A DNA stretch of 16,972 bases. It comes from a virus (taxonomy: Duplodnaviria; Heunggongvirae; Uroviricota; Caudoviricetes). Each line of letters begins with the position of its first letter. Position 1 is the first letter of the stretch. Location of the stretch: the IMG/VR virus record IMGVR_UViG_2693429635_000010; one strand, given 5' to 3'. A program made the position numbers and the translations under genes. The notes beneath the pieces are model-generated. The model was given only the letters and a program-made list of their open reading frames with translations. It was not told the DNA's origin and ran no database searches. Positions 1,069 to 15,228 of the stretch are shown in pieces.

Positions 1069-1263
1069 GGAGAGTGGCGCTATGTGCCATTGCATGGTGC
1101 CGGGTGCCTCCCGGTGAATTCAGTACCAGCACCTGAATCCGCGATTATCCCATATACCTACTCGCTGATTGCCCCTCCGCACAGGGGGATTCACCATGCC
1201 AGTTTCTTTTAACAAACTCCCCGCAAACCAGACAACAGTCAACCGCCTGAATTGTGAGACATT

Positions 1264-1290
1264 TAAAAAAAAGGCCCGCAAAAGCGAGCC
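1264..1290 (-). terminator. Rho-independent terminator immediately 3' of the tRNA cluster
   Basis: Minus-strand RNA GGCUCGC-UUUU-GCGGGCC (7-bp stem with one G-U pair) followed by 8 U (plus-strand A run 1265-1272); 14 nt downstream of the tRNA-Arg 3' end. Confidence 0.55.
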
Positions 1291-1304
1291 AGGGAAAATA
1301 AGTG

Positions 1305-1381
1305 TGGCGCGTTGTACTGGATTCGAACCAGTGACCGATTGCTTAGAAGGCAATTGCTCTGTCCGGCTGAGCTAACAACGC
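1305..1381 (-). tRNA. tRNA-Arg (anticodon UCU)
   Basis: 77-nt cloverleaf read by hand on the minus strand: acceptor GCGTTGT/ACAACGC, D arm GCTC...GAGC, anticodon stem ATTGC/GCAAT with loop CTTCTAA, T arm ACTGG-TTCGAAT-CCAGT, discriminator G, encoded CCA. Position matches the argO-type tRNA of lambdoid late regions. Confidence 0.85.
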
Positions 1382-1394
1382 ATGATGCAGATAA

Positions 1395-1471
1395 TGGACC
1401 GCCATCGGGGACTTGAACCCCGCGCAGCCAGCTTCGAAGGCTGGCGCTCTTTCCTGATGAGCTAATGGCGG
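1395..1471 (-). tRNA. tRNA-Arg (anticodon UCG as read from loop CTTCGAA)
   Basis: 77-nt cloverleaf on the minus strand: acceptor CCGCCAT/ATGGCGG (7 bp), D arm GCTC...GAGC, anticodon stem CCAGC/GCTGG, T arm CGGGG-TTCAAGT-CCCCG, discriminator T, encoded CCA. Unusual C1-G72 first pair. Confidence 0.75.
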
Positions 1472-1478
1472 TATGTGA

Positions 1479-1554
1479 TGGTGGCCCTTGCTGGATTTGA
1501 ACCAGCGACCTGGCGATTATGAGTCGCTCGCTCTCACCACTGAGCTAAAGGGCC
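1479..1554 (-). tRNA. tRNA-Ile2 (anticodon CAU, lysidine type; ileZ-like; a plain CAU reading would be tRNA-Met)
   Basis: 76-nt cloverleaf on the minus strand: GGCCCTT acceptor, D arm GCTC-AGTGGTGA-GAGC, anticodon loop CTCATAA, T arm GCTGG-TTCAAAT-CCAGC, AAGGGCC-A-CCA. Closely resembles E. coli ileX/ileY as I recall them. Confidence 0.8.
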
Positions 1555-1603
1555 GGAAGCAGAATAATAATGGTGCGTAATTAATTCTGCAATCTCATCC
1601 GTT

Positions 1604-2533
1604 TCAAACGATTAAATCCTGAACTTCCCTGACTGTCTGCTCAAAACGTCCGGTCTCCAGCTCAACACCAATCGCACGACGCCCCAGTGCCATCGCCGCT
1701 TTTACCGTTGAACCCGACCCCATGAAAAAATCCGCAACCAGATCACCAGGACGACTACTTGCGCTGATTATCTGCTGCAGCATTTCTGCCGGTTTTTCGC
1801 ACGGATGTTTCCCGGGATAGAACTGCACCGGTTTATGTGTCCACACATCCGTGTACGGCACCTGCGCCGTCACACCAAAATACCGCCGCAGATGCTTATA
1901 TTCACTCTGCAGCTCCACATACTGCCGGTTCAGTGACGTATACGTATCCACCAGCTGGTGGTGGGGCTTTTCCAGTTCACCGCGCTGATGTTTCTCTTCT
2001 GCCACCCGGGCAAACAGCGACTGTAATTTCAGATAATCGCTTTCGTTCGGTAGCTGCCACTGACTGGCACTGAACCAGTGCGACACCATGTTTTTCTTTC
2101 CTGTGGCATCTGCAATCTGTTTTGCCGTTATCCCCAGGGCCGCGCGCGCATCACGAAAGTAAGAAATCAGCGGGGCCATCACATGCTGTTTCAGTGCACT
2201 GCCCTTCGCCGCATACCCGGCATCTTTCGGACGATACGGCCCCTGATAATGTTCCGCGAACAGAATGCGCTCTGTGACGGGGAAATACGCCCGCAGGCTT
2301 TCCTTGTTGCATCCGTTCCAGCGTCCGGACGGCTTCGCCCAGATAATATGGTTCAGCACACTGAAGCGTTCACGCATCATGATTTCGATATCAGATGCCA
2401 GGCGATGACCACAGAACAGGTAAAGACTTCCGGCAGGTTTCAGCACCCGCCAGAACTGCGCCAGACACTGGTCCAGCCACTTCAGGTAATCATCGTCGCC
2501 CTTCCACTGGTTATCCCAGCCCTCAGGCTTCAC
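1604..2533 (-). CDS. DNA methyltransferase (beta-class N6-adenine/N4-cytosine type); 5' boundary uncertain, the DPPY motif lies upstream of the first canonical start codon
   Basis: ORF-track protein ends with motif I (HPCEKP...DFFMGSGST). Extending the frame 5' by hand gives stop-LINADCLEFIRSLPENSVDLIVTDPPYFK-V(GTG at 2531-2533), so catalytic motif IV (DPPY) is in frame but has no ATG/GTG/TTG ahead of it. Confidence 0.6.
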   Translation of the reverse strand: MKPEGWDNQWKGDDDYLKWLDQCLAQFWRVLKPAGSLYLFCGHRLASDIEIMMRERFSVLNHIIWAKPSGRWNGCNKESLRAYFPVTERILFAEHYQGPYRPKDAGYAAKGSALKQHVMAPLISYFRDARAALGITAKQIADATGKKNMVSHWFSASQWQLPNESDYLKLQSLFARVAEEKHQRGELEKPHHQLVDTYTSLNRQYVELQSEYKHLRRYFGVTAQVPYTDVWTHKPVQFYPGKHPCEKPAEMLQQIISASSRPGDLVADFFMGSGSTVKAAMALGRRAIGVELETGRFEQTVREVQDLIV

Positions 2534-2790
2534 TTTAAAGTACGGCGGGTCCGTGACTATCAGGTCAACAGAATTTTCGGGTAACGACCGGATAAATTCC
2601 AGGCAGTCGGCGTTGATTAACTAACAACTGGATATTTTTACAGTATTAAGCATGGATCATTAAGCCTGTCTCTGATAGGCTCATTCTGCTTTTGCGCAAA
2701 GCAGTGGGCCTGAGGTTTGCTTGTGAACCCAACGCATGAGCAGATGGCTGGTGGGTGCCCCTAACACCTACCAGCCGCCCATTTACCACA

Positions 2791-2817
2791 AATAAAAAAG
2801 CCTTTACTGCGGAAGGC
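2791..2817 (-). terminator. Putative rho-independent terminator overlapping the stop codon of the small ORF
   Basis: Minus-strand RNA GCCUU-CCGCAGUA-AAGGC (5-bp stem, 8-nt loop containing the UAA stop) followed by UUUUUUAUU. Confidence 0.4.
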
Positions 2818-3001
2818 GTCTGTAACAACCGAACTGATAGTCTGCCAGACCCGCCATAACCAGCTGGGTCAGTATTAACTGGCAGCGTTCGCGTGAAAGG
2901 TAAGTATTCTGCGCAATCTCCCCGACTGTCGCCGGGTCGGTAACGCTTAATTCATTAAACACCACTCTGGCGGTTTCTGTCATATCCTGCTGTTTTAGCA
3001 T
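2804..3001 (-). CDS. Small hypothetical protein (65 aa), possible helix-turn-helix DNA-binding protein
   Basis: Internal ATG of track ORF 2804..3124 with AGGGA ~8 nt upstream: MLKQQDMTETARVVFNELSVTDPATVGEIAQNTYLSRERCQLILTQLVMAGLADYQFGCYRRLPQ. The track's longer N-terminal extension is hydrophobic low-complexity and overlaps the tR'-like terminator. Sits between two terminators. Confidence 0.4.
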   Translation of the reverse strand: MLKQQDMTETARVVFNELSVTDPATVGEIAQNTYLSRERCQLILTQLVMAGLADYQFGCYRRLPQ

Positions 3002-3124
3002 GTCTTTTTCCCTTTTCCGGTTAACGTGACACACCAATAACTCTTGTCGAAAAAGCCAGCAAGCTGAAAGAACGGTATTAATAACCACCAGCGAATTTAT
3101 TGCGCTGCTGTATATTACGGACAC

Positions 3125-3146
3125 AAAAAAACCACCTTCCGGTGGC
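3125..3146 (-). terminator. tR'-like rho-independent terminator ~100 nt downstream of the Q gene
   Basis: Minus-strand RNA G-CCACC-GGAA-GGUGG followed by 7 U (plus-strand A run 3125-3131). Position relative to Q mirrors the lambda pR'/tR' (6S RNA) layout. Confidence 0.55.
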
Positions 3147-3242
3147 TTCCTTGTGCGAAAAAACTTGCATTTCGCCTCGCGATACAGCTTTGCGAAGCTT
3201 ACAGGAATTCAAGCTGTTTCTGCGTAAAAAAGCAAGCTTTTT
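3147..3242 (-). promoter_or_regulatory. Putative late promoter (pR'-like) and Q-utilisation region between the Q stop codon and the tR'-like terminator
   Basis: Positional inference from lambdoid architecture only; several TTG.../TA...T hexamers are present on the minus strand but none could be fixed confidently by eye. Confidence 0.3.
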
Positions 3243-3785
3243 TTATCGAAATGAATCGTGCATAGGTACATAAAGCATGTGTTCAGCCACGGCTAACCAA
3301 CCTGCAATACGTTTCTCACATGTGCTGAAACACCATTCCGGGTGAGTACGATTTAAACATTCTGCCATTTTTCTCTTACTCATTCCCCGTCCTTCGTACC
3401 TTTGCCGGAGAATATTGATTAGCCCGGGATATTCCCCAAGCACCTCACTGATAACGCGATCAATAATCAACGCCTCTGTGTCTGTACAATGTGACAACCA
3501 GCTCTTCTGCTTCCCTCTGGTCATATCCCGAAAAAATGCCTCAAGTTCCGGTTTTTCCAGCCCGGATTTCTTCATGCTGCGTAAAACCTCATTAACTGCT
3601 GTTTTCGTCAGCTTTTTCGAAACCAGTAACCGGTTAAACATATTTCCGGATTTACCCCCACCGATATACGACCACCGCCCCCACATCCGTAATTTCCCCT
3701 GGATCCAGACTGCTTCCAGCGTGTTCAGGCGTAAATGTTCGCCGCTTTTGCCTGTAATTTCCGGATATATCATATTTACGCTCAC
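3243..3785 (-). CDS. Late-gene antitermination protein Q (phage 21/82-type Q family)
   Basis: 180-aa ORF directly downstream of rusA with overlapping stop/start (GTGA), followed by the tR'-like terminator; N-terminal LRMWGRWSY motif resembles the ERWGAW motif I recall from QuuD-type Q proteins. Confidence 0.55.
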   Translation of the reverse strand: MSVNMIYPEITGKSGEHLRLNTLEAVWIQGKLRMWGRWSYIGGGKSGNMFNRLLVSKKLTKTAVNEVLRSMKKSGLEKPELEAFFRDMTRGKQKSWLSHCTDTEALIIDRVISEVLGEYPGLINILRQRYEGRGMSKRKMAECLNRTHPEWCFSTCEKRIAGWLAVAEHMLYVPMHDSFR

Positions 3786-4141
3786 TCACTCTCAATTTTG
3801 TAAATCTTCACACCCAGCCGTCCACCAGATACTGGCTGACCACGTACAATATTGATTTCATCAAACTGCTCGTCATCAATGAGCACTCCCGCATGCGTCA
3901 GCGCATCCAGCGGTGCTTTCAGAATATTGTCCAGGTCACGACGACGCTTATCCGGTGGCTCTGCAATAATTTTTATTGCCAGCCGTCCGGACAGGCTTAA
4001 TTTCAGTCGCTGCTGGCGAACAATAAGCGCCACTGCCCGGCGATAACGCTCCCCGGCTTTTGATACAAAATATGTGCTGCCACGACGTCGCCAGTAAGTG
4101 TTCACTGTCGGCGGGTAAGGTAAAACCAAATCTATGAGCAT
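3782..4141 (-). CDS. rusA: Holliday-junction resolvase RusA
   Basis: 119-aa ORF with strong RBS (AGAGGTG, 5-nt spacer). Motifs LPYPPTVNTYWRRRG and RRRDLDN...DALTHAGVLIDDEQ match the RusA family as I recall the E. coli K-12 sequence. Confidence 0.8.
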   Translation of the reverse strand: MLIDLVLPYPPTVNTYWRRRGSTYFVSKAGERYRRAVALIVRQQRLKLSLSGRLAIKIIAEPPDKRRRDLDNILKAPLDALTHAGVLIDDEQFDEINIVRGQPVSGGRLGVKIYKIESE

Positions 4142-4153
4142 CAGTCACCTCTT

Positions 4154-5200
4154 TTACCCGAGCACGCCAGTCGCAAAGGCGTGATCAAGAAAACGAAAAA
4201 TTAACTCAATCTGAGAGCCGTACTTTTTCTCAAACTCCAGCGGGTCTGCATGAAGTTCGTTGTGGTGCTCCCGGCACAACGGTAACGTGAAAATATCGTG
4301 GGCCTTTGTCCCCATTCCCCCCTGACCATGACCAATCAGGTGATGCGGATCGTCAGCAGGCTTACCACAACACGCACACGGCTGTGTCTTCACCCAGCGC
4401 GTGTATTTCTCGTTAACCCAGCGGCGACGTTTAGGTCGTTTCATGAAAGATTCCGGAGACTCAGGATCAACGGCAATGCTGACCACCGTCTTTTCCTGTG
4501 GCGGGTTTTGCTGGTGGGCGTGAGGCAGCGGCGCAAGATTTTTTGTGCGCTGCTTCAGTATGCTGGTGGCGGTCTGCTCTCCCGGTACGATGTCGCTTTC
4601 ACGGTACATTGAGCGGATTTTTTCCGCACGCAACCCCAGCGAACGACGTAATACCGCTTCCGGTAGCGCGTCCGCCACCTGATTGCGGACCGCCCACCAG
4701 GATAATTCAGCCAGAGATAATTCCCGTTCCTGTGCACCACTTATTGCGTGACGTATGACGTCAATCATCCAGGCTGTCAGATTTTGTTGAGCAAGCTGCC
4801 CGAGTGATTCGGATGTCTGGTCGCGCAGCTGGTTGTCGCAGTGCCAGCACAACACCATTGCGCCGGTACCATAACGGTGAATGACGGTTTCACTGTGGTG
4901 ATAATCACCGTGTGGCCACTGGCAGGATTTAACATGGCGCAGTAACCAGTCAGACAATGCGCCAGCGCCACCAGCAGCACGAATCACTCGTTCGTCGCTG
5001 AAAAATGGCAGTAATGATTTATCCTCCGCCAGCGGCTGGCGAACGGCAGGAACGACCCCGGACGGCAGATTACGCATGCTTTTCGGTTCCGGCTCCACCA
5101 GTACCCGGGTATTGTGGAATACCGGCATGGATTCACGGCCCGGCTTAACGATCACCAGCCCGAGTTCCGGTACCAGAACAGGTCGAAGTAATACCCGCAC
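4154..5200 (-). CDS. DUF968-like (YdfU-like) nin-region protein with C-terminal Cys/His motif
   Basis: 348-aa ORF with GTG start and GGAGG 5 nt upstream; C-terminus carries CACCGKP...HHLIGHG...LCREHHNELH, a zinc-finger/HNH-like signature. Size and position match the DUF968 proteins of lambdoid prophages. Confidence 0.55.
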   Translation of the reverse strand: MRVLLRPVLVPELGLVIVKPGRESMPVFHNTRVLVEPEPKSMRNLPSGVVPAVRQPLAEDKSLLPFFSDERVIRAAGGAGALSDWLLRHVKSCQWPHGDYHHSETVIHRYGTGAMVLCWHCDNQLRDQTSESLGQLAQQNLTAWMIDVIRHAISGAQERELSLAELSWWAVRNQVADALPEAVLRRSLGLRAEKIRSMYRESDIVPGEQTATSILKQRTKNLAPLPHAHQQNPPQEKTVVSIAVDPESPESFMKRPKRRRWVNEKYTRWVKTQPCACCGKPADDPHHLIGHGQGGMGTKAHDIFTLPLCREHHNELHADPLEFEKKYGSQIELIFRFLDHAFATGVLG

Positions 5201-5201
5201 G

Positions 5202-5480
5202 TTACCTCCAGATGCGTTGCTGGAATGTGCGGGACGGACGCGGTGGTCGTTCGGAGTAAGGAAGCCTGACGGAGATTATCCAGTGACGATAATCGAGGCT
5301 GAGGGCTTTCTTAATCTCGTATCCGTGTCTGCGGTAGCACTGAATTAGCCACTCGGCCTGTTCTTCAGTGCATGGGGGATGCTGGAACCAGTCAGATTTG
5401 AAAGTGCGGGAACGCCGCCCGTGCCTGCTGGCAGGGGCGGCAGAGTTATCCGAATTGTAAAATTTGGTATCGTGCGCCAT
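5202..5480 (-). CDS. Hypothetical nin-region protein (92 aa), paralogue of 10055..10333
   Basis: Internal ATG of track ORF 5202..5609: MAHDTKFYNSDNSAAPASRHGRRSRTFKSDWFQHPPCTEEQAEWLIQCYRRHGYEIKKALSLDYRHWIISVRLPYSERPPRPSRTFQQRIWR. About 80% identical to the copy-B paralogue, supporting a real gene; weak RBS. Confidence 0.45.
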   Translation of the reverse strand: MAHDTKFYNSDNSAAPASRHGRRSRTFKSDWFQHPPCTEEQAEWLIQCYRRHGYEIKKALSLDYRHWIISVRLPYSERPPRPSRTFQQRIWR

Positions 5481-5549
5481 CTGTTTTCTCTGCTGGCGCA
5501 GCAGGTGCCAGTTGTTCAGGCTGACGGATGGATTGTAAACCAGAACGAC

Positions 5550-5579
5550 CAGAAAAAACAAAACCCGCCGAAGCGGGTT
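5550..5579 (-). terminator. hok mRNA 3' terminator
   Basis: Minus-strand RNA AACCCGC-UUCG-GCGGGUU followed by UUUUGUUUUUU (plus-strand A-rich run 5551-5561). Confidence 0.5.
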
Positions 5580-5647
5580 AAGTGCGGGTGCGTTGAGGAT
5601 GCCTGACACATCAGAGGTGGCGAGGGATTTCTCCCCCGCCAGGTCTC

Positions 5648-5803
5648 TTACTCCTCAGGTTCGTAAGCTGTGAAGACAGCGACCTCCGTCTGGCCGGTTC
5701 GGATTCGTACCTCGCAGAGGTCTTTCCTCGTTACCAGTGCCGTCACTATGACGGTTAAACAGATGACGATCAGGGCGATTAACATCGCCTTTTGCTGCTT
5801 CAT
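5648..5803 (-). CDS. hok: Hok-family type I toxin (51 aa, HokD-like)
   Basis: MKQQKAMLIALIVICLTVIVTALVTRKDLCEVRIRTGQTEVAVFTAYEPEE, embedded in track ORF 5648..5860; matches the Hok/Gef consensus, and I recall HokD (RelF) of E. coli as identical. Confidence 0.85.
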   Translation of the reverse strand: MKQQKAMLIALIVICLTVIVTALVTRKDLCEVRIRTGQTEVAVFTAYEPEE

Positions 5804-5993
5804 AGCCTGCTTCTCCTTGCCTTTCGGCACGTAAGAGGCTAACCTACATTTGTGAGACATAGATTGGGCCTCAGATTAATGTTAAGCGTCTTGCAGGACG
5901 CGTAATGTTAACTGGGGCTTTTCTCTATCTGCCTTTTGGTGTTCATGCCTGAGACAGATAGCCTCAAGCACCCGCAGCAATTCTACTTAACTC
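5804..5993. promoter_or_regulatory. hok mRNA leader (mok / fold-back region) with the expected antisense Sok RNA gene on the plus strand
   Basis: Established hok/sok architecture. An inverted repeat CTATCTG...CAGATAG is visible near 5925-5958. Sok promoter and ends were not mapped. Confidence 0.4.
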
Positions 5994-6049
5994 TCCTTTT
6001 CCCGCAAACCGTTTTTACCCGATATGGGAATTCCCATATCGTAATGAAT

Positions 6050-6154
6050 TCAGTTCCCTAGTCGATCCATCAAAAACACAACCAGGCAGTAAACGCCCAC
6101 AACAGCAACAACAGCCAGCGCACCTTCCATTGCCAGTGATATATCATCCGACAT
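6050..6154 (-). CDS. Small hydrophobic peptide (34 aa, single predicted TM helix), not in the ORF track
   Basis: Hand translation: GGAGGGAAT-ATG then MSDDISLAMEGALAVVAVVGVYCLVVFLMDRLGN-TGA. A diverged homologue sits at the same relative position beside the second hok locus (11159..11248). Confidence 0.35.
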   Translation of the reverse strand: MSDDISLAMEGALAVVAVVGVYCLVVFLMDRLGN

Positions 6155-6269
6155 ATTCCCTCCTTTGGTGTTAATCCCGGCGAACGTTTTTACCCCCACC
6201 GACAAATAACATATACTAAAAAAGCGATAGCCATAGCAACGCCTGTAATTGCAAATGCTTCAGGCCAGT

Positions 6270-7139
6270 TCATTGGCGCACCTCCTGCGGCGGTTCTGGT
6301 AGCGGCATCCAGTGTGACGGTTTCCACGACGCACCAGGAATTATCCACCCATCATTAGCGTCAGGATGACCCGGGATGTAAGTCGCCCATTTCATTCGCC
6401 AGTCACCTTTCCTGTCAAACTCCACGGCAACAAGAACGGCTGTTTTGGTATCCGGCATTCGCTCACTACAGCTTATCCAACTATCCGGAGTTACCGGATA
6501 GTTGCCCGATAGTGCATTCTGCTCCAGTGATGCTTTTACAAACCACGCTGCCTGAACTATAACGCCATGAATCCAGCGCAAATCAGCATCGCGATCTTTC
6601 TTTTTCATCTTTTCGCCACTTAAGGCCTTGCTTATGTGGCTGCGTACCAGGTCTTCATGTAATTCCTTCGCCTCCTCAATGGTGAAACCACCAGGCAGAA
6701 GAGCCGGAGTTACCGGAGAGCTGGTTGACGCTTCCGGGATTTTCCGAAAATTATTGGTTGACGAATCTTTATTTTCCCGAAAGTTTCCGGACTGAAGCAT
6801 GGCTTCGCGGCAATCGTTCCAGCCTGTAGCGTATGCAGCCGCTTTGCTGCTGCCTTCAACTGGCGCATCCTGCCAATACATTTCTTCCGGCACTATCGGC
6901 GCTGGAGGGGCGGCAAATAGATATCCGCCAAAGTCAGGAAGCTCTCTAATGGCCTGTACGAATTTTTGTTTGCCTACGTCAACCCCTAATGGGTAATGAG
7001 CTATAATCTTTGCCACCGGCTCTGCTTCCAGCGATGCCAGCGCAATCCGTGCCAGTTCCATTTGTTCACCACGGGTAAGCCCGTTTTCAACCGGATTTTT
7101 AATGAACAATTCAATACGTTCTTTGGTAATAGTGGTCAT
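6270..7139 (-). CDS. Hypothetical protein with DUF551-like C-terminal domain
   Basis: 289-aa ORF with RBS AAGGAG (7-nt spacer). C-terminus WISCSERMPD...GDWRMKWATY...WMPLPEPP resembles the DUF551 signature of lambdoid prophage accessory proteins. Confidence 0.5.
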   Translation of the reverse strand: MTTITKERIELFIKNPVENGLTRGEQMELARIALASLEAEPVAKIIAHYPLGVDVGKQKFVQAIRELPDFGGYLFAAPPAPIVPEEMYWQDAPVEGSSKAAAYATGWNDCREAMLQSGNFRENKDSSTNNFRKIPEASTSSPVTPALLPGGFTIEEAKELHEDLVRSHISKALSGEKMKKKDRDADLRWIHGVIVQAAWFVKASLEQNALSGNYPVTPDSWISCSERMPDTKTAVLVAVEFDRKGDWRMKWATYIPGHPDANDGWIIPGASWKPSHWMPLPEPPQEVRQ

Positions 7140-7149
7140 GTGTTACTCC

Positions 7150-7413
7150 TTAACCCGCAGTGCTTTCAACTGATGAGGGGAACAAAATCTTTTCATCAAA
7201 CCCTGCATTCATATCATGAACAGCAACACACCAATCCATCGACGAACGATTATCAAGAGCCTCCATGATTTCATCCATGCGGCGTAGGTCATACAGGTAA
7301 ATGCTTTTATCGCCAATGGTGTAAAAGCCAATTTTTTTCGGTGATGGACAGCGATCAAGAACTTCCTGTAATTCGTTTAACCATGCCCGTTCTTTTTTTG
7401 TCAAAGTTGCCAT
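7150..7413 (-). CDS. Hypothetical protein (87 aa)
   Basis: Internal ATG at 7411-7413 of track ORF 7150..7503, with AAGGA 8 nt upstream: MATLTKKERAWLNELQEVLDRCPSPKK... The track's longer start lacks an RBS and would overlap the upstream gene. Confidence 0.5.
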   Translation of the reverse strand: MATLTKKERAWLNELQEVLDRCPSPKKIGFYTIGDKSIYLYDLRRMDEIMEALDNRSSMDWCVAVHDMNAGFDEKILFPSSVESTAG

Positions 7414-7414
7414 A

Positions 7415-7633
7415 TCAGTTTTCCTTATACGGATTAATTTTATTGTGCAGTGTGTTGAACGACGCCCATACAACGTCGGTATACAATTCAGTAACTGGCT
7501 CAATTATTTTCCCGATTGCCCAGACAAAAATTAGAGGGGATATCGGTATCATCAATACGATAAACAGAATGAGAAACAAAAATTCTGTCGACCTACTTTT
7601 TTGCGGATATTCTTTTCTGAATAATGTAGTCAT
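7415..7633 (-). CDS. Hypothetical small membrane protein (72 aa)
   Basis: Track ORF with hydrophobic core FLFLILFIVLMIPISPLIFVWAIG; tightly packed between neighbouring minus-strand genes; RBS weak. Confidence 0.35.
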   Translation of the reverse strand: MTTLFRKEYPQKSRSTEFLFLILFIVLMIPISPLIFVWAIGKIIEPVTELYTDVVWASFNTLHNKINPYKEN

Positions 7634-7665
7634 TTCTTACCGCCCTTTCGGGCGGCCTCCCGACA

Positions 7666-7878
7666 TTAATCGTTGTGGTAACTCATGGCTTCATTTGCAG
7701 CATCAACCGGATCAACCTCCCACCAGCAATAATTTGGTGCGTTTCCTTCAGGTGTCCACGGTTCTAATTCATTTTTTGCCACATTCCCATCGCCAGTAAT
7801 TTTAAAAATCTGCTCAGAGAATTTTCTTGCCCACTCGTTATATTTTTCCGCATTAATGGCTTTCTGTGTATTTAACAT
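7666..7878 (-). CDS. Hypothetical protein (70 aa)
   Basis: Track ORF with RBS GGAGG 8 nt upstream of the ATG. Confidence 0.5.
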   Translation of the reverse strand: MLNTQKAINAEKYNEWARKFSEQIFKITGDGNVAKNELEPWTPEGNAPNYCWWEVDPVDAANEAMSYHND

Positions 7879-7983
7879 AAATATACCTCCAGTTAAGGAT
7901 TAAATTTTATTTACAGTGCTGAACTTAATTATTCAGATTTGGATTATGCTTTCTCTTCACGAAGTTCCGATTGTTAATTTGGC

Positions 7984-8406
7984 TCACAACAGCACCTTCT
8001 GAAAATTACCCTGATAGAAAGCCAGTACACGCTGCATAGCTTCGCTCTTCCGGCACTCGCTACAGATTATGTTCAGACGCCTGTCGTAGCGGCGTATTTC
8101 TCCGTCTGGTAATGACCAGATAAGATCCGGATCAACCACAGATGGTTTCTTCACCTTTGCCCTAGATAGTTTTTTGCGGGCATTTTGCCAGTCCTTACGA
8201 GCCTGTTCAGACGGGAATAACCCGTAACCAGAGTTGTATACATCGCCACTGGCAACCAGCTCTCTGGCGAGAACGCTCATCAGATATCTTGTCGCACCTG
8301 TCCTGGCTTCCAGTTGCCGTAACGTCTCGCGCCCACTCCGGCGTACTAGTTCAACAACCTGCCCTTTAATTTTTTCCCGCTCTTCTTGTGTAAATACTTT
8401 TGCCAT
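7984..8406 (-). CDS. Hypothetical protein (140 aa), paralogue of 15628..16050
   Basis: ATG at 8404-8406 with GGAGG 6 nt upstream (the track's TTG start at 8421 would overlap the RBS): MAKVFTQEEREKIKGQVVELVRRSGRETLRQLEARTGATRYLMSVLARELVASGDVYNSGYGLFPSEQARKDW...; ~90% identical to the right-hand copy. Confidence 0.55.
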   Translation of the reverse strand: MAKVFTQEEREKIKGQVVELVRRSGRETLRQLEARTGATRYLMSVLARELVASGDVYNSGYGLFPSEQARKDWQNARKKLSRAKVKKPSVVDPDLIWSLPDGEIRRYDRRLNIICSECRKSEAMQRVLAFYQGNFQKVLL

Positions 8407-8421
8407 AAGCGCCTCCGGCAA

Positions 8422-9192
8422 TCACTTTTCCGATACAACACGGCGGGAAGAATCAGTAATCTGTCGAACAATATCCCGGTGCTTGTTCAGCTCCCGCAGC
8501 GCGGCGCAGACTCGCTCCCACTTCTGAACATCACTTTTCGCCCTGCGCAGCGCCAGGTTTGCCCTGCGAAGGGACGGAAAAATCAGCTCATCTGCTTGCG
8601 TTTCGGTAAACGATGGCAACGGCTGCACAATGTCCGCCACAGTTTCTGTTTTAATTTCTTCCTGTGTTGCGGCTTCCCGGACTGGTAACGCAGCACCTGC
8701 TGGCTGAGGAAAGGCCTTACCATCACTTTCCGTTACCAGCGCGGCTTTCGGCTCTGCTGGTAAATTATCGCCCGGCATGCAGTAACGAAATTTACCGTTC
8801 TGATTAACGCGTGCCAGCCGCCCCGTTGCGGTTACCACCGCCAGCGTGGAAGCAACCTTGCGAGTACTGACACCGAACTTACCCGCCAGTTCCTCACACG
8901 TTTTAGCCCCATCCTGACCGATAAACTCAATCATCATGTCTGCGGTAACTTTTTGTTCGACCTCCCCGGTCAGCATATCCTGTGCTTCAGATTTTACTGG
9001 CCGCTCTTCGGTTACCCGGGATTCACCTTCGCCAGCCAGAAACCAGGTGTGACCAGTTTTATCAACGACGCCATTTCTTTTGAGTTCCCACAGCTCGTTG
9101 ACAGCCTCTTCACGACTGATTCCAAGGCTGGCCGCCACTACCTGTGAAGAGGCTCTTTTCAGTGCTTTCAGTGCGTCAAATACGGTTTCCAT
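8422..9192 (-). CDS. Hypothetical protein (256 aa) with winged-helix-like N-terminus
   Basis: ATG at 9190-9192 with GGAGG 8 nt upstream (track uses an upstream TTG at 9210). N-terminus METVFDALKALKRASSQVVAASLGISREEAVNELWELKRNGVV suggests a DNA-binding fold. Confidence 0.45.
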   Translation of the reverse strand: METVFDALKALKRASSQVVAASLGISREEAVNELWELKRNGVVDKTGHTWFLAGEGESRVTEERPVKSEAQDMLTGEVEQKVTADMMIEFIGQDGAKTCEELAGKFGVSTRKVASTLAVVTATGRLARVNQNGKFRYCMPGDNLPAEPKAALVTESDGKAFPQPAGAALPVREAATQEEIKTETVADIVQPLPSFTETQADELIFPSLRRANLALRRAKSDVQKWERVCAALRELNKHRDIVRQITDSSRRVVSEK

Positions 9193-9225
9193 TAATATTT
9201 CCTCCGACAAAATCGTTTCTCAGAT

Positions 9226-9888
9226 TCAAATAAAACCAGCTGCCTTCCGGCGTTCGTATTCCTGTTTCAGCCGTTCAATTGGCGTTGGCCCTTGCGGGTG
9301 TTTCGCCCCTTCCAGTTGTCGTCGCACTGGCGGAACACTCATCCCGTTACCAACATGCTTTGCCCATTTCGTCAGTTGCCGTTCCGCAAGTCGTTTTAAC
9401 TCACCCTGCGTCATCTGGCGCTCAATCCCTCTGGTACGCATTTCGAGGCAGATGTGGTACAGCACAGGCTGTGGCCACGGGTATTTATCACTCCCGTCGT
9501 ATCGCCAGGATTCATTGCGCCAGCGCCGGTACTCTTCCATCACTGCATCCACCGTAAGACCAAATGGATTTGCCCCACTCTCCGAAATCAGTGCAACAAA
9601 CTCAGCCAGGTCCGGGGGCCACGTTTCACCCGCCCGGCAGCGGTCCATGCACTGACGGCAGACCAGCCGGATTTGCTGTTCAGTCATCGCGCCAATCTGG
9701 GCAATCCAGAGCTTCGAAGGTGCGGCCCCGTTCTTCTGTGTCCAGCGGTTCGAATACACCTCCCCCATAAGCTCCCACAGCTTCCAGGCCGTTTCCGTTG
9801 CTGATAAATCCGTTGTCACGTTCCCACTGTTCGCGTGCTGCCCGGATTTCCTGAACTGCCCGTGATGCCGTGCCACCTGATGCTGCAT
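9226..9888 (-). CDS. Replication protein P-like (lambda P family, helicase loader)
   Basis: 220-aa ORF with RBS AAGGGGG 5 nt upstream. The blocks TEQQIRLV...TWPPDLAEFVALISE and VDAVMEEYRRW...YPWPQPVLYHICLEM...TQGELKRLAERQL...VPPVRRQL resemble lambda P as I recall it. No O-like gene lies directly upstream. Confidence 0.5.
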   Translation of the reverse strand: MQHQVARHHGQFRKSGQHANSGNVTTDLSATETAWKLWELMGEVYSNRWTQKNGAAPSKLWIAQIGAMTEQQIRLVCRQCMDRCRAGETWPPDLAEFVALISESGANPFGLTVDAVMEEYRRWRNESWRYDGSDKYPWPQPVLYHICLEMRTRGIERQMTQGELKRLAERQLTKWAKHVGNGMSVPPVRRQLEGAKHPQGPTPIERLKQEYERRKAAGFI

Positions 9889-9891
9889 GGC

Positions 9892-10053
9892 TTACCCCCT
9901 TGCTGACTGGTTAGACGGCAGATTACGCATGCTTTTCGGTTCCGGCTCCACCAGTACCCGGGTATTGTGGAATACCGGCATGGATTCACGGCCCGGCTTA
10001 ACGATCACCAGCCCGAGTTCCGGTACCAGAATAGGTCGAAGTAATACCCGCAC
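9892..10053 (-). pseudogene. Truncated 5' fragment of a DUF968-family gene (53 codons), recombination remnant
   Basis: GTG at 10051-10053 opens a frame encoding MRVLLRPILVPELGLVIVKPGRESMPVFHNTRVLVEPEPKSMRNLPS, nearly identical to the N-terminus of the 4154..5200 protein; it then diverges at the repeat boundary (9913/9914) and stops after 7 further codons, just upstream of the P-like gene. Confidence 0.5.
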
Positions 10054-10054
10054 G

Positions 10055-10333
10055 TTACCTCCAGATGCGTTGCTGGAATGTGCGGGACGGACGCGGTGGG
10101 CGTTCGGAGTAAGGAAGCCTGACGGAGATTATCCAGTGACGGTAGTCGAGGCTAAGGGCTTTTTTAACCTCGTATCCGCGCCTGCGGTAACACTGAATTA
10201 TCCATTCAGCCTGCTCTTCAGTGCATGGTGGATGCTGGAACCAGTCCGATTTGAATGCATGAAAACGCCGTCCGCACCTGCTGGCAAAGACGGCAGAATC
10301 ATCAGAATTGTGTAATTTGGTATCGTGCGCCAT
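10055..10333 (-). CDS. Hypothetical nin-region protein (92 aa), paralogue of 5202..5480
   Basis: Internal ATG of track ORF 10055..10444: MAHDTKLHNSDDSAVFASRCGRRFHAFKSDWFQHPPCTEEQAEWIIQCYRRRGYEVKKALSLDYRHWIISVRLPYSERPPRPSRTFQQRIWR. Confidence 0.45.
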   Translation of the reverse strand: MAHDTKLHNSDDSAVFASRCGRRFHAFKSDWFQHPPCTEEQAEWIIQCYRRRGYEVKKALSLDYRHWIISVRLPYSERPPRPSRTFQQRIWR

Positions 10334-10694
10334 CGGTTGTCTCTGCTGGCGCAGCAGGTGCCAGTTGTTCAGGCTGGCGTATAAAGTATAAATAAACTGG
10401 TTCCAGTGTAAAGCCCCTACATTAATGGAATAAAAGTCAAACAACAGATTGTTGGGATAAACACAACGCTTATTATTAAAAGCGATTAGATAAATTAAAT
10501 TTTAATGTTATGCAATTTTACCAGATCACCATAACATCTCGTTTGAAACCACCGAAACAACAACCATATCAATATTGATTATGTTAAAGTGAGTAAATAT
10601 GGAAAACAACAAATCTGCACATTACGCTCCTTTTTTATCTGTGATACTTTTTGTTTTATGCTGTGTGTGGGCATTATTTTTATAAAAATATTTA

Positions 10695-10791: not shown

Positions 10792-10947
10792 TTACTCCTC
10801 AGGTTCGTAAGCTGTGAAGACAGCGACCTCCGTCTGGCCGGTTCGGATTCGTACCTCGCAGAGGTCTTTCCTCGTTACCAGTGCCGTCACTATGACGGTT
10901 AAACAGATGACGATCAGGGCGATTAACATCGCCTTTTGCTGCTTCAT
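10792..10947 (-). CDS. hok: Hok-family type I toxin (51 aa), second copy
   Basis: Encodes the same 51-aa protein as 5648..5803, embedded in track ORF 10792..11004. Confidence 0.85.
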   Translation of the reverse strand: MKQQKAMLIALIVICLTVIVTALVTRKDLCEVRIRTGQTEVAVFTAYEPEE

Positions 10948-11136
10948 AGCCTGCTTCTCCTTGCCTTTCGGCACGTAAGAGGCTAACCTAGATTTGCCGT
11001 TCATAGATTGAGCCTCAGATTAATGTTAAGCGTCTTGCAGGACGCGTAATGTTAACTGGGGCTTTTCTCTATCTGCCGTTGGTGTTCATGCCTGAGACAG
11101 ATAGCCTCAAGCACCCGCAGCCATTCTACTTAACTC
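10948..11136. promoter_or_regulatory. hok mRNA leader / expected antisense Sok region (second copy)
   Basis: Near-identical to 5804..5993. Confidence 0.4.
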
Positions 11137-11595: not shown

Positions 11596-14500
11596 CTATG
11601 TATCTGAGCCAAACATAGAGCGCCGCCTTGTTATTTTATAATAAGTGGGATTTTCATTATCCACCTCAAAATCAGAGAAGAAGTGGTTATCTCTTAATGC
11701 TGTTAATAAACTTTGATTAGTTGAATCAACTTCAATTTTAGGTTTGCCTCGCCCCAAAATTTTACTGAACTCCGATAAACCAAGCAGATCAAGATACTCT
11801 TTGCAAGTCGTCTTACTCAAATCCTTACCCGGCAACAAAGCGATTAGCAGTGCTATTTTATTCTGCATATTCAGTCCCTCTGCGACAAACAGGTTTTTTA
11901 GTAACGGTTCAGAAACATCATTAGGACTTGCTATCAATGCTGATATATCCTGTATTGCTCGACTCAAGATGAGCGACTGAGTAGAGGTTCCCCAAGTTTT
12001 ATAAGATGACGTCAAGATTAGAAGTTCATCTGGTTTAAAATTATTTTCTAAAATATAGTCATTAACGACCTGAGAGTAATTCTTACTATAAATAGCCAAC
12101 GGAGTTTTAACAAACTCGAGTAGCTTAACTTTCAAATCATCATCAACTTTCCAAGAAAGTATTGATATAGCCTCATCCAAAATAAAGTTATCAATCGTCA
12201 TTAATTCAACGTATGCCCTGATATTCTTATGAATATAATAGGAAAGTTGCTCTGAATAGTTATCTCGTATGAAATTAAGTGGCGCAACATTCATACGAAT
12301 AATATTTTTATCCACTAATATTTTGAACTTATCACTCGCGATATCACTAGCGCTAAAGGATGTTTTACAAATAATATTTAGTGAGCAAATTAATTTTTCA
12401 TATTTATCATTTGATAAATCATTACAGATAACAATCGATTTAAATAATTTACCTTTAAGCTCGTTATCAATATTAATATTTTGAAAATTCAGGTCTACAT
12501 CAGTTCTATTGATAAATTCGATAAGTGAGTCATCCAGTCCATCAACATGTTCAAAATAAGAGACAATATTTTCCTCAGAGCACACTGCTCTATCTTTATC
12601 CAACAAAGATGACCATAAAGATTCGCTCTCAACCTCACTCAGAGATGTCACGAAAGTTTGCAAAGCGTTTATATACTGGCCTTTTTGTTCATCAGATATT
12701 CCCTCATTATTAAGAACGGATAAAACAATGGATTCATCATCCACGATTGAACCATCACAACTAGATAAAACCATATCCAGATAGTCCCTAATATGGTTAT
12801 TAACATAACTAGCCAAGGGAGAATCAGGTTGTGACATCACTAGTGTATAGTTCTTATGGCGAATATCATCTTCACTATTAAGCGTGTAAACCTTACTCAG
12901 CATTAAGGTCAGGTTGGAAAAATTAATATCATAAAGTGAATGCTGGTAAACCGCATCAAAGAGTACTTTATTTGCGTTTTCAAATTTAATACTGACAAAA
13001 GAGACGTTAAGCAACTTAAAACCACTAATTAATTTGTCAACCTTTGGTTCTGATATTGCTAAATAACCTGCCGAATCAGAGATGTAATCAGTCAGACAAT
13101 CATCAATATTAATGGCCTCGATGGCGTCATTGGCAGAATAATAAAACGTGCCTATAGAGTAGAGTTTAACCCAATCAGCAGAAAATTCACTCTCTGTCAG
13201 CGCATAAGAAAAAAACTCAGGCCACTGTGTATTTAATCGATTAATGAAGACAGGCTGAGCCCTCTCAGTTTCAAAGTAACCACGAATAAACTCAACTCTT
13301 CTATCTTTTCTTAGTTGTTTGAATAAACGTTTTATTAAGTTTACCAGGGCTGGCGTTTGAAGCAGATAAGCTAATAAATCAAAATTAAGCGCCTCTTCCT
13401 GTTCAAAATCCACTTCTCGAAGGCGGGCAACGACCAGCTTGGGGTTCTTGAGTTGATAAGTGAACTCTTTGCCTTTTTGATCGGTAATGCTGCGTAAAAA
13501 CATCTTATCAATTCGACTCAGGCTATTTTCATAAAAATAGGTCATATAGTCGGTATAGGTTTCATCAATATAACCATCACGAATAAGGTATTTAAGCAAG
13601 TCAAAATACTCACTGCTTTTTATTTCATTAAAGTCTCTTTCCTCTCCAATTTCATTGGTATAGGTGAGTTTAAATATTTCATCAATGTTTTCTCTAGTTA
13701 TTACTTCTTTAAGTCTTTTGTTTCTAGAATCAACCAAACTTTCTCTTGATCTTGATATAAGCTCATTAATTTCTTCTATTTTACCATTAAATTTATTTTC
13801 AACACTTTCTTTTCTAGCCGCCCTTCTCTTTGCTATATCAGCTTTCTCAGCCTGATTATAGTGAGGATGATTATTATATCTAGATAATTCCTTATCGTAT
13901 ATAGCATCAACCTCCTGACTAGAGTTGAGTATTTCATCATTGATTGCCTCAATCTCTTTTTTTCTATCTCTAATATCTTTTTCTATTTTCTTTATTTCTT
14001 CAATAATAAGGTTGTCTTTTTCACTAAATATGGTATAAACCATACCTTGATTAAGTTGCAACTCACTAAAATCTCTTGGGAAAATATTCTTATAGGCAAT
14101 AATGGCCAACATTTTATTACAGTCAAGTTCTGTCGTGTTTAATTTGTTATAATAAATTTGAAATTCGTTATAAATATTCTTCAATATTCTCATATCATCA
14201 ATATATAAAGACATCCCTTGTAGAAATCTTTCATTGAACAACTTGAGAATACCACCACCATCAAAATGTGTGATAAACTGATCGTAAGAGTTAGAACTAT
14301 CAACAACAGGAATAACTGGAATGATATAATCAAAGAATTTGGTTCTATCCTTCGAAATGAAGATATCATCACGAAGCAAGTAAATAAAACGTAACGTCGA
14401 TTTCTTGTGCCCTGCTGTGTCCCGTTGAATATTAACCAGTCTGTTAACCTCATGAAGACGTTCAAAGATGTTATTACTATTAAAACGGTCCATGTCTTCA

Positions 14501-15228
14501 AAAACAATGGCATCAGCATCAACGTTCTCGAAAAGGTACAATACTTCATTTAAATATCTATCGAAATAAGACTCGTTACTTTCTTCAAAAATCTCTATTT
14601 CATTACCCTGTAAATTTATTTTCTTAAGAACATTACGATTCTTTTGGGTTTTTATTAACTTGTAAATGAAAATACAAGATAGGATAGTACATATAAACCC
14701 ACTAATTAAAAGCGTATCGTATTTAGTTGATAATGTAAGTAGTGTCTTTATATTACCTTCAGATAAAAGTGAAACAAACTTTTCCCACTTATTAAATAGC
14801 GTGATATGTAGTATCATAGCGATAAATAACACCGTAAAGATGGTGTTTATCACAATGTTGTTAGTTTTTATTTTTTTCTTTACTTTAAAATGTGTCTGGG
14901 GAATATCATCAGCATTAATTTGGTGAATTAACTGGTTAAGAACTTTACCTTCTAACGCGGTTTCATTTATATCTTTACTTGGTTCATTAGTTTCAGCTTC
15001 CTCAATCGATCTGAAATGAGCAAGTGAGATATGAACAAACTTTATATTTGAATGACTTTTCTTATAGGATTCGATAAGACTACTTTTTCCTGCGCTATAT
15101 TGCCCTGATATCGCAACATTTTTTAGATCGTTATTGGCAAAAACAAAATCTATCGCATTTTTATATACACCCAGCTCAACATCGCTGAACGGCGTTAACT
15201 TTTGAAATTTATAGCTATCATCACTCAT
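11596..15228 (-). CDS. Large KAP-type P-loop NTPase (1210 aa): Walker A, two hydrophobic helices, Walker B, coiled-coil region and ~700-aa C-terminal region of unknown function; candidate defence/abortive-infection protein
   Basis: Single uninterrupted 3.6-kb ORF, ATG at 15226-15228 with AAGGGA RBS. Walker A SGQYSAGKSS (aa 41-50); hydrophobic helices NIVINTIFTVLFIAMILHITLF (~aa 124-145) and LLISGFICTILSCIFIYKLI (~aa 171-192); Walker-B-like DAIVFEDMD (~aa 238-246); K/E-rich coiled-coil-like stretch ~aa 400-510. Gene body is visibly AT-rich relative to the flanks. Confidence 0.7.
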   Translation of the reverse strand: MSDDSYKFQKLTPFSDVELGVYKNAIDFVFANNDLKNVAISGQYSAGKSSLIESYKKSHSNIKFVHISLAHFRSIEEAETNEPSKDINETALEGKVLNQLIHQINADDIPQTHFKVKKKIKTNNIVINTIFTVLFIAMILHITLFNKWEKFVSLLSEGNIKTLLTLSTKYDTLLISGFICTILSCIFIYKLIKTQKNRNVLKKINLQGNEIEIFEESNESYFDRYLNEVLYLFENVDADAIVFEDMDRFNSNNIFERLHEVNRLVNIQRDTAGHKKSTLRFIYLLRDDIFISKDRTKFFDYIIPVIPVVDSSNSYDQFITHFDGGGILKLFNERFLQGMSLYIDDMRILKNIYNEFQIYYNKLNTTELDCNKMLAIIAYKNIFPRDFSELQLNQGMVYTIFSEKDNLIIEEIKKIEKDIRDRKKEIEAINDEILNSSQEVDAIYDKELSRYNNHPHYNQAEKADIAKRRAARKESVENKFNGKIEEINELISRSRESLVDSRNKRLKEVITRENIDEIFKLTYTNEIGEERDFNEIKSSEYFDLLKYLIRDGYIDETYTDYMTYFYENSLSRIDKMFLRSITDQKGKEFTYQLKNPKLVVARLREVDFEQEEALNFDLLAYLLQTPALVNLIKRLFKQLRKDRRVEFIRGYFETERAQPVFINRLNTQWPEFFSYALTESEFSADWVKLYSIGTFYYSANDAIEAINIDDCLTDYISDSAGYLAISEPKVDKLISGFKLLNVSFVSIKFENANKVLFDAVYQHSLYDINFSNLTLMLSKVYTLNSEDDIRHKNYTLVMSQPDSPLASYVNNHIRDYLDMVLSSCDGSIVDDESIVLSVLNNEGISDEQKGQYINALQTFVTSLSEVESESLWSSLLDKDRAVCSEENIVSYFEHVDGLDDSLIEFINRTDVDLNFQNINIDNELKGKLFKSIVICNDLSNDKYEKLICSLNIICKTSFSASDIASDKFKILVDKNIIRMNVAPLNFIRDNYSEQLSYYIHKNIRAYVELMTIDNFILDEAISILSWKVDDDLKVKLLEFVKTPLAIYSKNYSQVVNDYILENNFKPDELLILTSSYKTWGTSTQSLILSRAIQDISALIASPNDVSEPLLKNLFVAEGLNMQNKIALLIALLPGKDLSKTTCKEYLDLLGLSEFSKILGRGKPKIEVDSTNQSLLTALRDNHFFSDFEVDNENPTYYKITRRRSMFGSDT

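Follow-up and report, generated by a model that had tools for sequence, protein, structure and literature searches.

Introduction

The closest described relative of the gene analysed here is M.EcoGII, a 349-residue beta-class enzyme that methylates adenines irrespective of the surrounding sequence (Murray et al., 2018, PMC5778455). Enzymes of this type are non-specific N6-adenine DNA (and RNA) methyltransferases of lambdoid prophages. M.EcoGII comes from E. coli O104:H4 C227-11 (GenBank EGT69837.1), which also has a paralogue, M.EcoGI; the two proteins are identical at 333 of 349 positions. M.EcoGII is prophage-borne, neither M.EcoGII nor M.EcoGI is expressed in the lysogen, and constitutive expression of M.EcoGII slows growth and is unstable (PMC5778455). 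The same study named phage 1720A-02 as the carrier of a very similar enzyme and defined the beta-class motif order as DPPY, target recognition domain and FxGxG (PMC5778455).

The gene also has a characteristic neighbourhood. At 86-95% nucleotide identity it is found in phage 1720a-02 (AGR48369.1), in Stx2a, Stx2d and Stx2e phages (Stx2_EH2201, WGPS2) and in phiP27 (L24), and these phages share the arrangement of a Q-position gene, a 65-residue open reading frame (ORF), the methylase and the ileZ-argN-argO tRNAs. Published descriptions of some of the Stx phages give the order Q, small regulator, methylase, tRNAs and stx (PMC8456039, PMC9729726).

Here we analyse a stretch of 16,972 nucleotides from a virus of the Caudoviricetes (IMG/VR record IMGVR_UViG_2693429635_000010), henceforth the window, in which a methyltransferase frame has no canonical start codon in front of its catalytic DPPY motif. 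The first-pass annotation had offered two explanations, a start-codon mutation (ATG to ATC) that inactivated the gene or non-canonical initiation, and had named as the stake whether the prophage methylates host DNA. We find that the codon to be explained is a different one: the frame is interrupted by an amber codon ten codons downstream of an intact ATG, and the gene is most likely a recent loss-of-function allele.

An M.EcoGII-type gene in the window

The 338-codon frame that is open in the window matches the Pfam profile PF01555 (N6_N4_Mtase) with 152.2 bits (E = 2.7e-44; profile positions 1-219 of 221), above the curated cut-off of 26.7 bits. Relatives of the predicted protein in the PDB include M.RsrI, CcrM and M.MboIIA, and its motifs run from DPPY through a central target recognition domain to a C-terminal FxGxG, an order that fits the beta class. 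With Glu11 restored (see below), the protein is identical to M.EcoGII at 331 of 350 positions, the reference being the sequence in Supplementary Table S1 of PMC11551740 as machine-read from the PDF, with a few obvious reading errors. The M.EcoGII sequence starts MLNTVKISSCELINADCLEF, or MLNTVKISSCELINADCLEFIRSLPENSVDLIVTDPPY as printed in that supplement, and the N-terminus MLNTVKISSC(E)LINADCLEF is common to M.EcoGII and the window. Both genes lie on lambdoid prophages and have the same DPPY...FxGxG order. They differ in the amber at codon 11 of the window gene and in its Val126, where M.EcoGII has Ala.

Among phages, the best match to the window is 1720a-02, with 94.9% nucleotide identity over 1401 bases. 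On these comparisons the gene is an M.EcoGII orthologue, which belongs to the family by descent but as a disrupted allele, its frame from the family ATG being interrupted.

An amber codon opposite Glu11

The methyltransferase frame is open on the minus strand from an in-frame TAG at 2623-2621 (...CCATGCTTAATACTGTAAAAATATCCAGTTGTTAGTTAATCAACGCCGACTGCCTGGAATTT...; Table 1). The 29 sense codons after it (2620-2534) encode LINADCLEFIRSLPENSVDLIVTDPPYFK and lead to a GTG at 2533-2531. Both the ORF list and direct reading of the sequence are devoid of ATG, GTG or TTG between this TAG and this GTG, and the list, which takes the first such codon after a stop, gives an ORF at 1604..2533 of 309 residues that begins at the GTG. 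Since DPPY (2551-2540) lies upstream, initiation at the GTG would drop the motif. On these three points, the open 29 codons, the missing start and the fate of DPPY, our reading bears out the first-pass annotation. By our own rough estimate, a run of 29 codons free of start codons has a probability of about 1 in 5; what counts is the conserved catalytic domain upstream of the first usable start and not the length of the start-free run.

The frame does not begin at the TAG but runs on in register upstream of it, as ATG (2653-2651) CTT AAT ACT GTA AAA ATA TCC AGT TGT TAG. An in-frame TGA at 2659-2657 bounds the ORF on the upstream side, so that the ATG at 2653-2651 is the only possible wild-type start. 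Annotation of the homologues leads to the same codon. The gene is annotated as a DNA methylase of 349 or 352 residues in phage 1720a-02, several Stx2 phages and phiP27, intact E. coli copies are annotated as well, and the start in each of these maps onto the window ATG, which is itself intact and lies ten codons upstream of the TAG.

At codon 11, all four aligned phage homologues have GAG (GAA in phiP27) opposite the window TAG, and all four have ATC two codons further on. Codons 1-11 are translated sequence, as indicated by the synonymous differences among homologues at codon 3 (AAT/AAC) and codon 11 (GAG/GAA). In a scripted regex check of 20 fetched loci, codon 11 was GAG or GAA in each of the 7 without the TAG-bearing 41-mer and TAG in each of the 13 with it. 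The lesion is thus a single G-to-T change at 2623 that turned Glu11 (GAG) into an amber TAG. A frameshift is rejected as a bypass of the stop: the +1 frame meets a TAA after two codons and the -1 frame a TGA after about 20.

Table 1. Features of the methyltransferase locus and its surroundings, in window coordinates.
Feature	Position	Strand	Basis
M.EcoGII-type beta-class N6-adenine DNA methyltransferase gene (predicted), ATG to TGA, 349 codons, interrupted at codon 11	1604..2653	-	homologue CDS boundaries, alignment, PF01555, M.EcoGII identity
Native ATG start codon, intact	2651..2653	-	annotated start of the 349/352-residue homologues maps here
Premature amber codon, Glu11 (GAG; GAA in phiP27) to TAG; would leave the 10-residue peptide MLNTVKISSC	2621..2623	-	alignment, allele counts
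ATC, conserved Ile13; RefSeq/PGAP start; one codon after the stop	2615..2617	-	alignment, annotation
Catalytic motif IV, DPPY, residues 35-38	2540..2551	-	sequence; motif description in PMC5778455
GTG, Val41, first canonical in-frame start after the amber; product without DPPY; 309-residue form of other callers	2531..2533	-	ORF list, protein collection
GTC, Val126; Ala in M.EcoGII, reconstructed ancestors and the other homologues examined	2276..2278	-	sequence comparison
AdoMet-binding motif I, FMGSG (FxGxG), residues 310-314	1712..1726	-	sequence; PMC5778455
65-residue ORF ("hypothetical" or "TrmB family regulator" in homologous phages), always precedes this methyltransferase	2804..3001	-	homologous phage records
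DUF1133 protein in antiterminator Q position, weak Phage_antitermQ match	3243..3773	-	annotation, profile
Terminator-like hairpin and T-run at the end of the 65-residue ORF, about 140 nt upstream of the methyltransferase ATG	2790..2817	-	terminator scan
Terminator-like hairpin CCACC-GGAA-GGTGG then T7, about 100 nt downstream of the Q-position gene, candidate tR'	3125..3145	-	sequence reading; same stem flagged on the opposite strand
Three tRNA genes (CAT-anticodon Ile/Met type, Arg-TCG, Arg-TCT), immediately downstream of the methyltransferase, an arrangement shared with Stx phages	1305..1554	-	tRNA calls

Distribution and history of the allele

The TAG 41-mer is present in 6 of 5426 complete E. 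coli genomes, three of which are chicken isolates, the others having come from seawater, a rabbit farm and a human; the exact GAG 41-mer occurs in at least 1430 of the 5426. The 309-residue product is indexed in 38 blocks of an assembly collection. Among the further carrier loci shown, out of 24 contigs read, all 10 have both the TAG and an identical 170-nt 5' region, and they include NCBI isolates and human-gut metagenome assemblies. A protein collection holds the ATC-start form of 337 residues on 74 contigs and the GTG-start form of 309 residues on 17, and the repaired 349-residue sequence is absent from about 15 billion proteins.

The ORF downstream of the stop is intact in every carrier examined. 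Relative to the nearest GAG relatives, the allele has two private coding changes, the nonsense change and a C-to-T at 2277 (Ala126Val), and no synonymous ones, numbers too small to give a selection test on the post-mutation ORF statistical power. Val126 is confined to the six TAG-carrying complete genomes and is always linked to the TAG, residue 126 being Ala in M.EcoGII and in the reconstructed ancestors.

The allele has moved between prophages. Strain Z1323CEC0015 shares the TAG and Ala126Val but differs in the surrounding mosaic when compared over window positions 1293-4147: a 44-nt patch at 1998-2041 differs at 15 positions, and the Q/promoter module (3000-3700) is about 75-80% identical, with some 170 mismatches, as against almost none in 1400-3000. 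The shared changes together with the diverged Q/promoter module imply that the TAG segment was carried into different mosaic prophages. The sequence comparisons thus show the lesion, the orthology, the distribution of the allele and its mosaic spread. An IS3 element follows the tRNAs in Z1323CEC0015.

The nearest GAG relatives are the E. coli AR_0017 group, eight genomes with 1399-base matches at 99.2-99.4% identity, and here the same methyltransferase is frameshifted by an independent 2-nt deletion (equivalent to window 2149-2148). Thus, the loss of this gene recurs: the AR_0017 allele, the closest GAG relative (99.4%), and the window allele are both inactivated, by different and independent lesions. 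Of the two, only the AR_0017 copy carries a pseudogene flag in RefSeq; the TAG allele is entered there as an intact gene.

Probable loss of function and the alternatives

We consider it highly probable that the window gene is a recent loss-of-function allele of the M.EcoGII type, null or strongly weakened. With Glu11 turned into an amber codon by the G-to-T at 2623, ribosomes that initiate at the native ATG would release a peptide of 10 residues. The remaining 338 codons hold every catalytic and AdoMet-binding motif and have neither a canonical start nor a Shine-Dalgarno sequence ahead of DPPY, which is why loss of function is the most likely outcome. If any enzyme is still made, its only sources would be rare read-through of the amber and an inefficient restart at the AUC of Ile13. 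Such a loss would be tolerated because the M.EcoGII family is silent in lysogens and would come into play only once the phage is induced, shielding progeny phage DNA from restriction; we infer that the lesion is neutral in the lysogen. By the same token, the stake first attached to the locus is undercut: M.EcoGII and M.EcoGI, although intact, remain silent during lysogeny (PMC5778455), so that even intact copies do not methylate the host chromosome at that stage.

Several points count against calling the gene a pseudogene. Besides the intact downstream ORF of every carrier examined, the allele is common enough to be present in two prophages of different mosaic make-up and has no further disabling change in either, although none is expected at a divergence of at most 0.1%. 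In addition, the AUC lies 3 nt after the stop, and terminating ribosomes could restart there; RefSeq, for its part, annotates the gene as intact.

Such a restart is the core of the leading alternative, which holds that the gene is functional through a non-canonical start or termination-reinitiation at the AUC (2617-2615) and yields a 337-residue enzyme without residues 1-12, which could be a natural, weakened version of a toxic methyltransferase. As a near-cognate start, AUC has measurable activity and lies here one codon after the stop, the product from Ile13 would keep DPPY and the whole PF01555 match, and the downstream ORF is intact in all carriers. Indeed, RefSeq/PGAP starts the coding sequence at this ATC in all carrier complete genomes (WP_252322676.1, 337 residues), with no pseudogene flag. 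We read this choice as a homology-driven annotation rule and not as translation evidence.

Near-cognate AUH initiators do exist in E. coli, where infC and pcnB use AUU starts, and such an initiator is what the AUC alternative proposes for the window. However, the unusual start of infC and pcnB is conserved in their orthologues and accompanied by a ribosome-binding site, whereas the orthologues of the window gene start 12 codons upstream, at ATG, and have an internal Ile at this position. No Shine-Dalgarno sequence (GGAG/AGGA-like) is found in the 25 nt upstream of the ATC, AAAAATATCCAGTTGTTAGTTAATC. Even with a strong engineered ribosome-binding site, AUC initiates at 0.02-3% of AUG (bioRxiv 10.1101/063800). 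Finally, a change at a conserved site, the linked Ala126Val, is in keeping with relaxed constraint. On balance, production of a working enzyme from the AUC is unlikely.

A variant of this idea, that the amber and the AUC one codon on together form a natural translational throttle that releases small amounts of enzyme without residues 1-12, strikes us as distinctly improbable. If true, the enzyme would be less toxic to the host, which would explain the wide circulation of the allele and its transfer between mosaic prophages with the ORF intact.

Full-length enzyme might instead be made in sufficient amount by amber read-through or with the help of a host suppressor tRNA, and a very active non-specific methyltransferase might need little protein. 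UAG is the leakiest stop codon of E. coli. A U after the stop is a poor suppression context, though, and it is the base that follows the window TAG; natural read-through is usually at or below 1e-3. An amber suppressor was sought among the three tRNAs of the window and none was found there, and the rarity of the TAG (6 of 5426 genomes) gives no sign of selection for it. We judge sufficient read-through very improbable.

The two remaining readings have next to no chance of being right. That the original ATG was mutated to ATC had been suggested by the position of the ATC (LIN-ADCLEF) just ahead of the conserved NADCLEF, a positional intuition only, and is ruled out by the alignment with intact homologues, in which the ATC is Ile13 in every case and the start is the ATG 36 nt upstream, still intact in the window; M.EcoGII itself reads ...CELINADCLEF. 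That the TAG is a sequencing or assembly error in a gene that is really intact would agree with its being a single base apart from more than 1400 genomes, and is ruled out by independent assemblies, the identical allele being present in six complete genomes of different sources and countries and in 10 of 10 carrier loci listed from isolate and metagenome assemblies, linked to the private change at 2277.

The first-pass annotation was thus right that no canonical start can yield a product with DPPY and that the gene may be inactivated; the defect is the amber at codon 11. Its start-codon lesion does not hold, and non-canonical initiation receives no comparative support: all homologues examined start at ATG, and none has an equivalent non-ATG start.

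Consequences for annotation

For predictions of the methylome or of restriction evasion by this prophage, the gene is best entered as a probably dead member of the M.EcoGII type of non-specific adenine methyltransferases. An automatic pipeline hides the nonsense mutation by starting at the ATC, leaving 74 contigs with an "intact" 337-residue record, and another caller gives a 309-residue protein that lacks the catalytic motif. The by-products of the analysis are a correct diagnosis of the lesion and a caution on automatic annotation that rescues genes by means of an ATC start. Taken with the separate frameshift of the nearest relatives, the allele hints at recurrent loss of a potentially toxic gene in resident prophages. 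Public databases already contain the gene family, its location and the allele; little follows from the finding in practice, and no new biological question is opened.

Genomic context

In transcription order, the locus comprises DUF968, RusA, DUF1133 in Q position, the 65-residue ORF, the methyltransferase, three tRNAs, a DUF6645/SASA esterase (nanS-p-like) and a holin, and belongs to the late region of a lambdoid prophage that lacks stx. In the homologous Stx phages and their relatives the intact methylase (GAG or GAA at codon 11) and tRNAs are followed by stx genes, whereas no stx genes are present in the window, which has an STnc100-like sRNA region instead. The STnc100 match, a strong one (138 bits), is at 1038-1228 on the minus strand, just downstream of the tRNAs, where the homologous Stx phages carry stxAB.

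Late, Q-dependent expression of the methyltransferase gene is suggested by the order of the genes, the pair of terminator-like hairpins and published work, and would agree with the silence of the M.EcoGII family in lysogens. A scan of 1200-3900 detected no sigma-70 consensus promoter. The hairpins at 3125-3145 and 2790-2817 bracket the 65-residue ORF, between the Q-position gene and the methyltransferase. A structured 5' leader that hides the start was considered and rejected: folding of 2830-2600 gave z = -2.1, with no stable structure over the ATG.

A four-codon upstream ORF at 2646-2660 on the minus strand (ATG ATC CAT GCT TAA) shares nucleotides with the native start codon of the methyltransferase. 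The only Shine-Dalgarno-like element, AGG at 2666-2664, is better spaced for this short ORF than for the methyltransferase, and the short ORF is kept in phiP27, with a TTG start. The short ORF may hold down synthesis of a toxic enzyme; alternatively, it may merely result from the conservation of codons 2-3.

Tools disagree on the first tRNA, at 1479-1554 on the minus strand: ARAGORN calls it tRNA-Met (CAT), while RefSeq and the phage records have tRNA-Ile (ileZ), the usual ambiguity for a lysidine-modified tRNA-Ile2.

Further from the methyltransferase, an extra segment of about 4.4 kb (5530-9912) has no counterpart in the five closest complete genomes. It is flanked by a direct repeat of about 470 nt (about 5056-5529 and 9913-10386), with a hok/sok locus to either side (Rfam sok at 5798-5973 and 10942-11116), and resembles an early-region module that was duplicated, has diverged and was acquired through recombination between prophages. 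Also in the early region, adjoining hokD, an ORF of 1210 residues at 11596-15228 on the minus strand is annotated as a YobI-family P-loop NTPase in identical genomes and may be an accessory or defence-type cargo gene.
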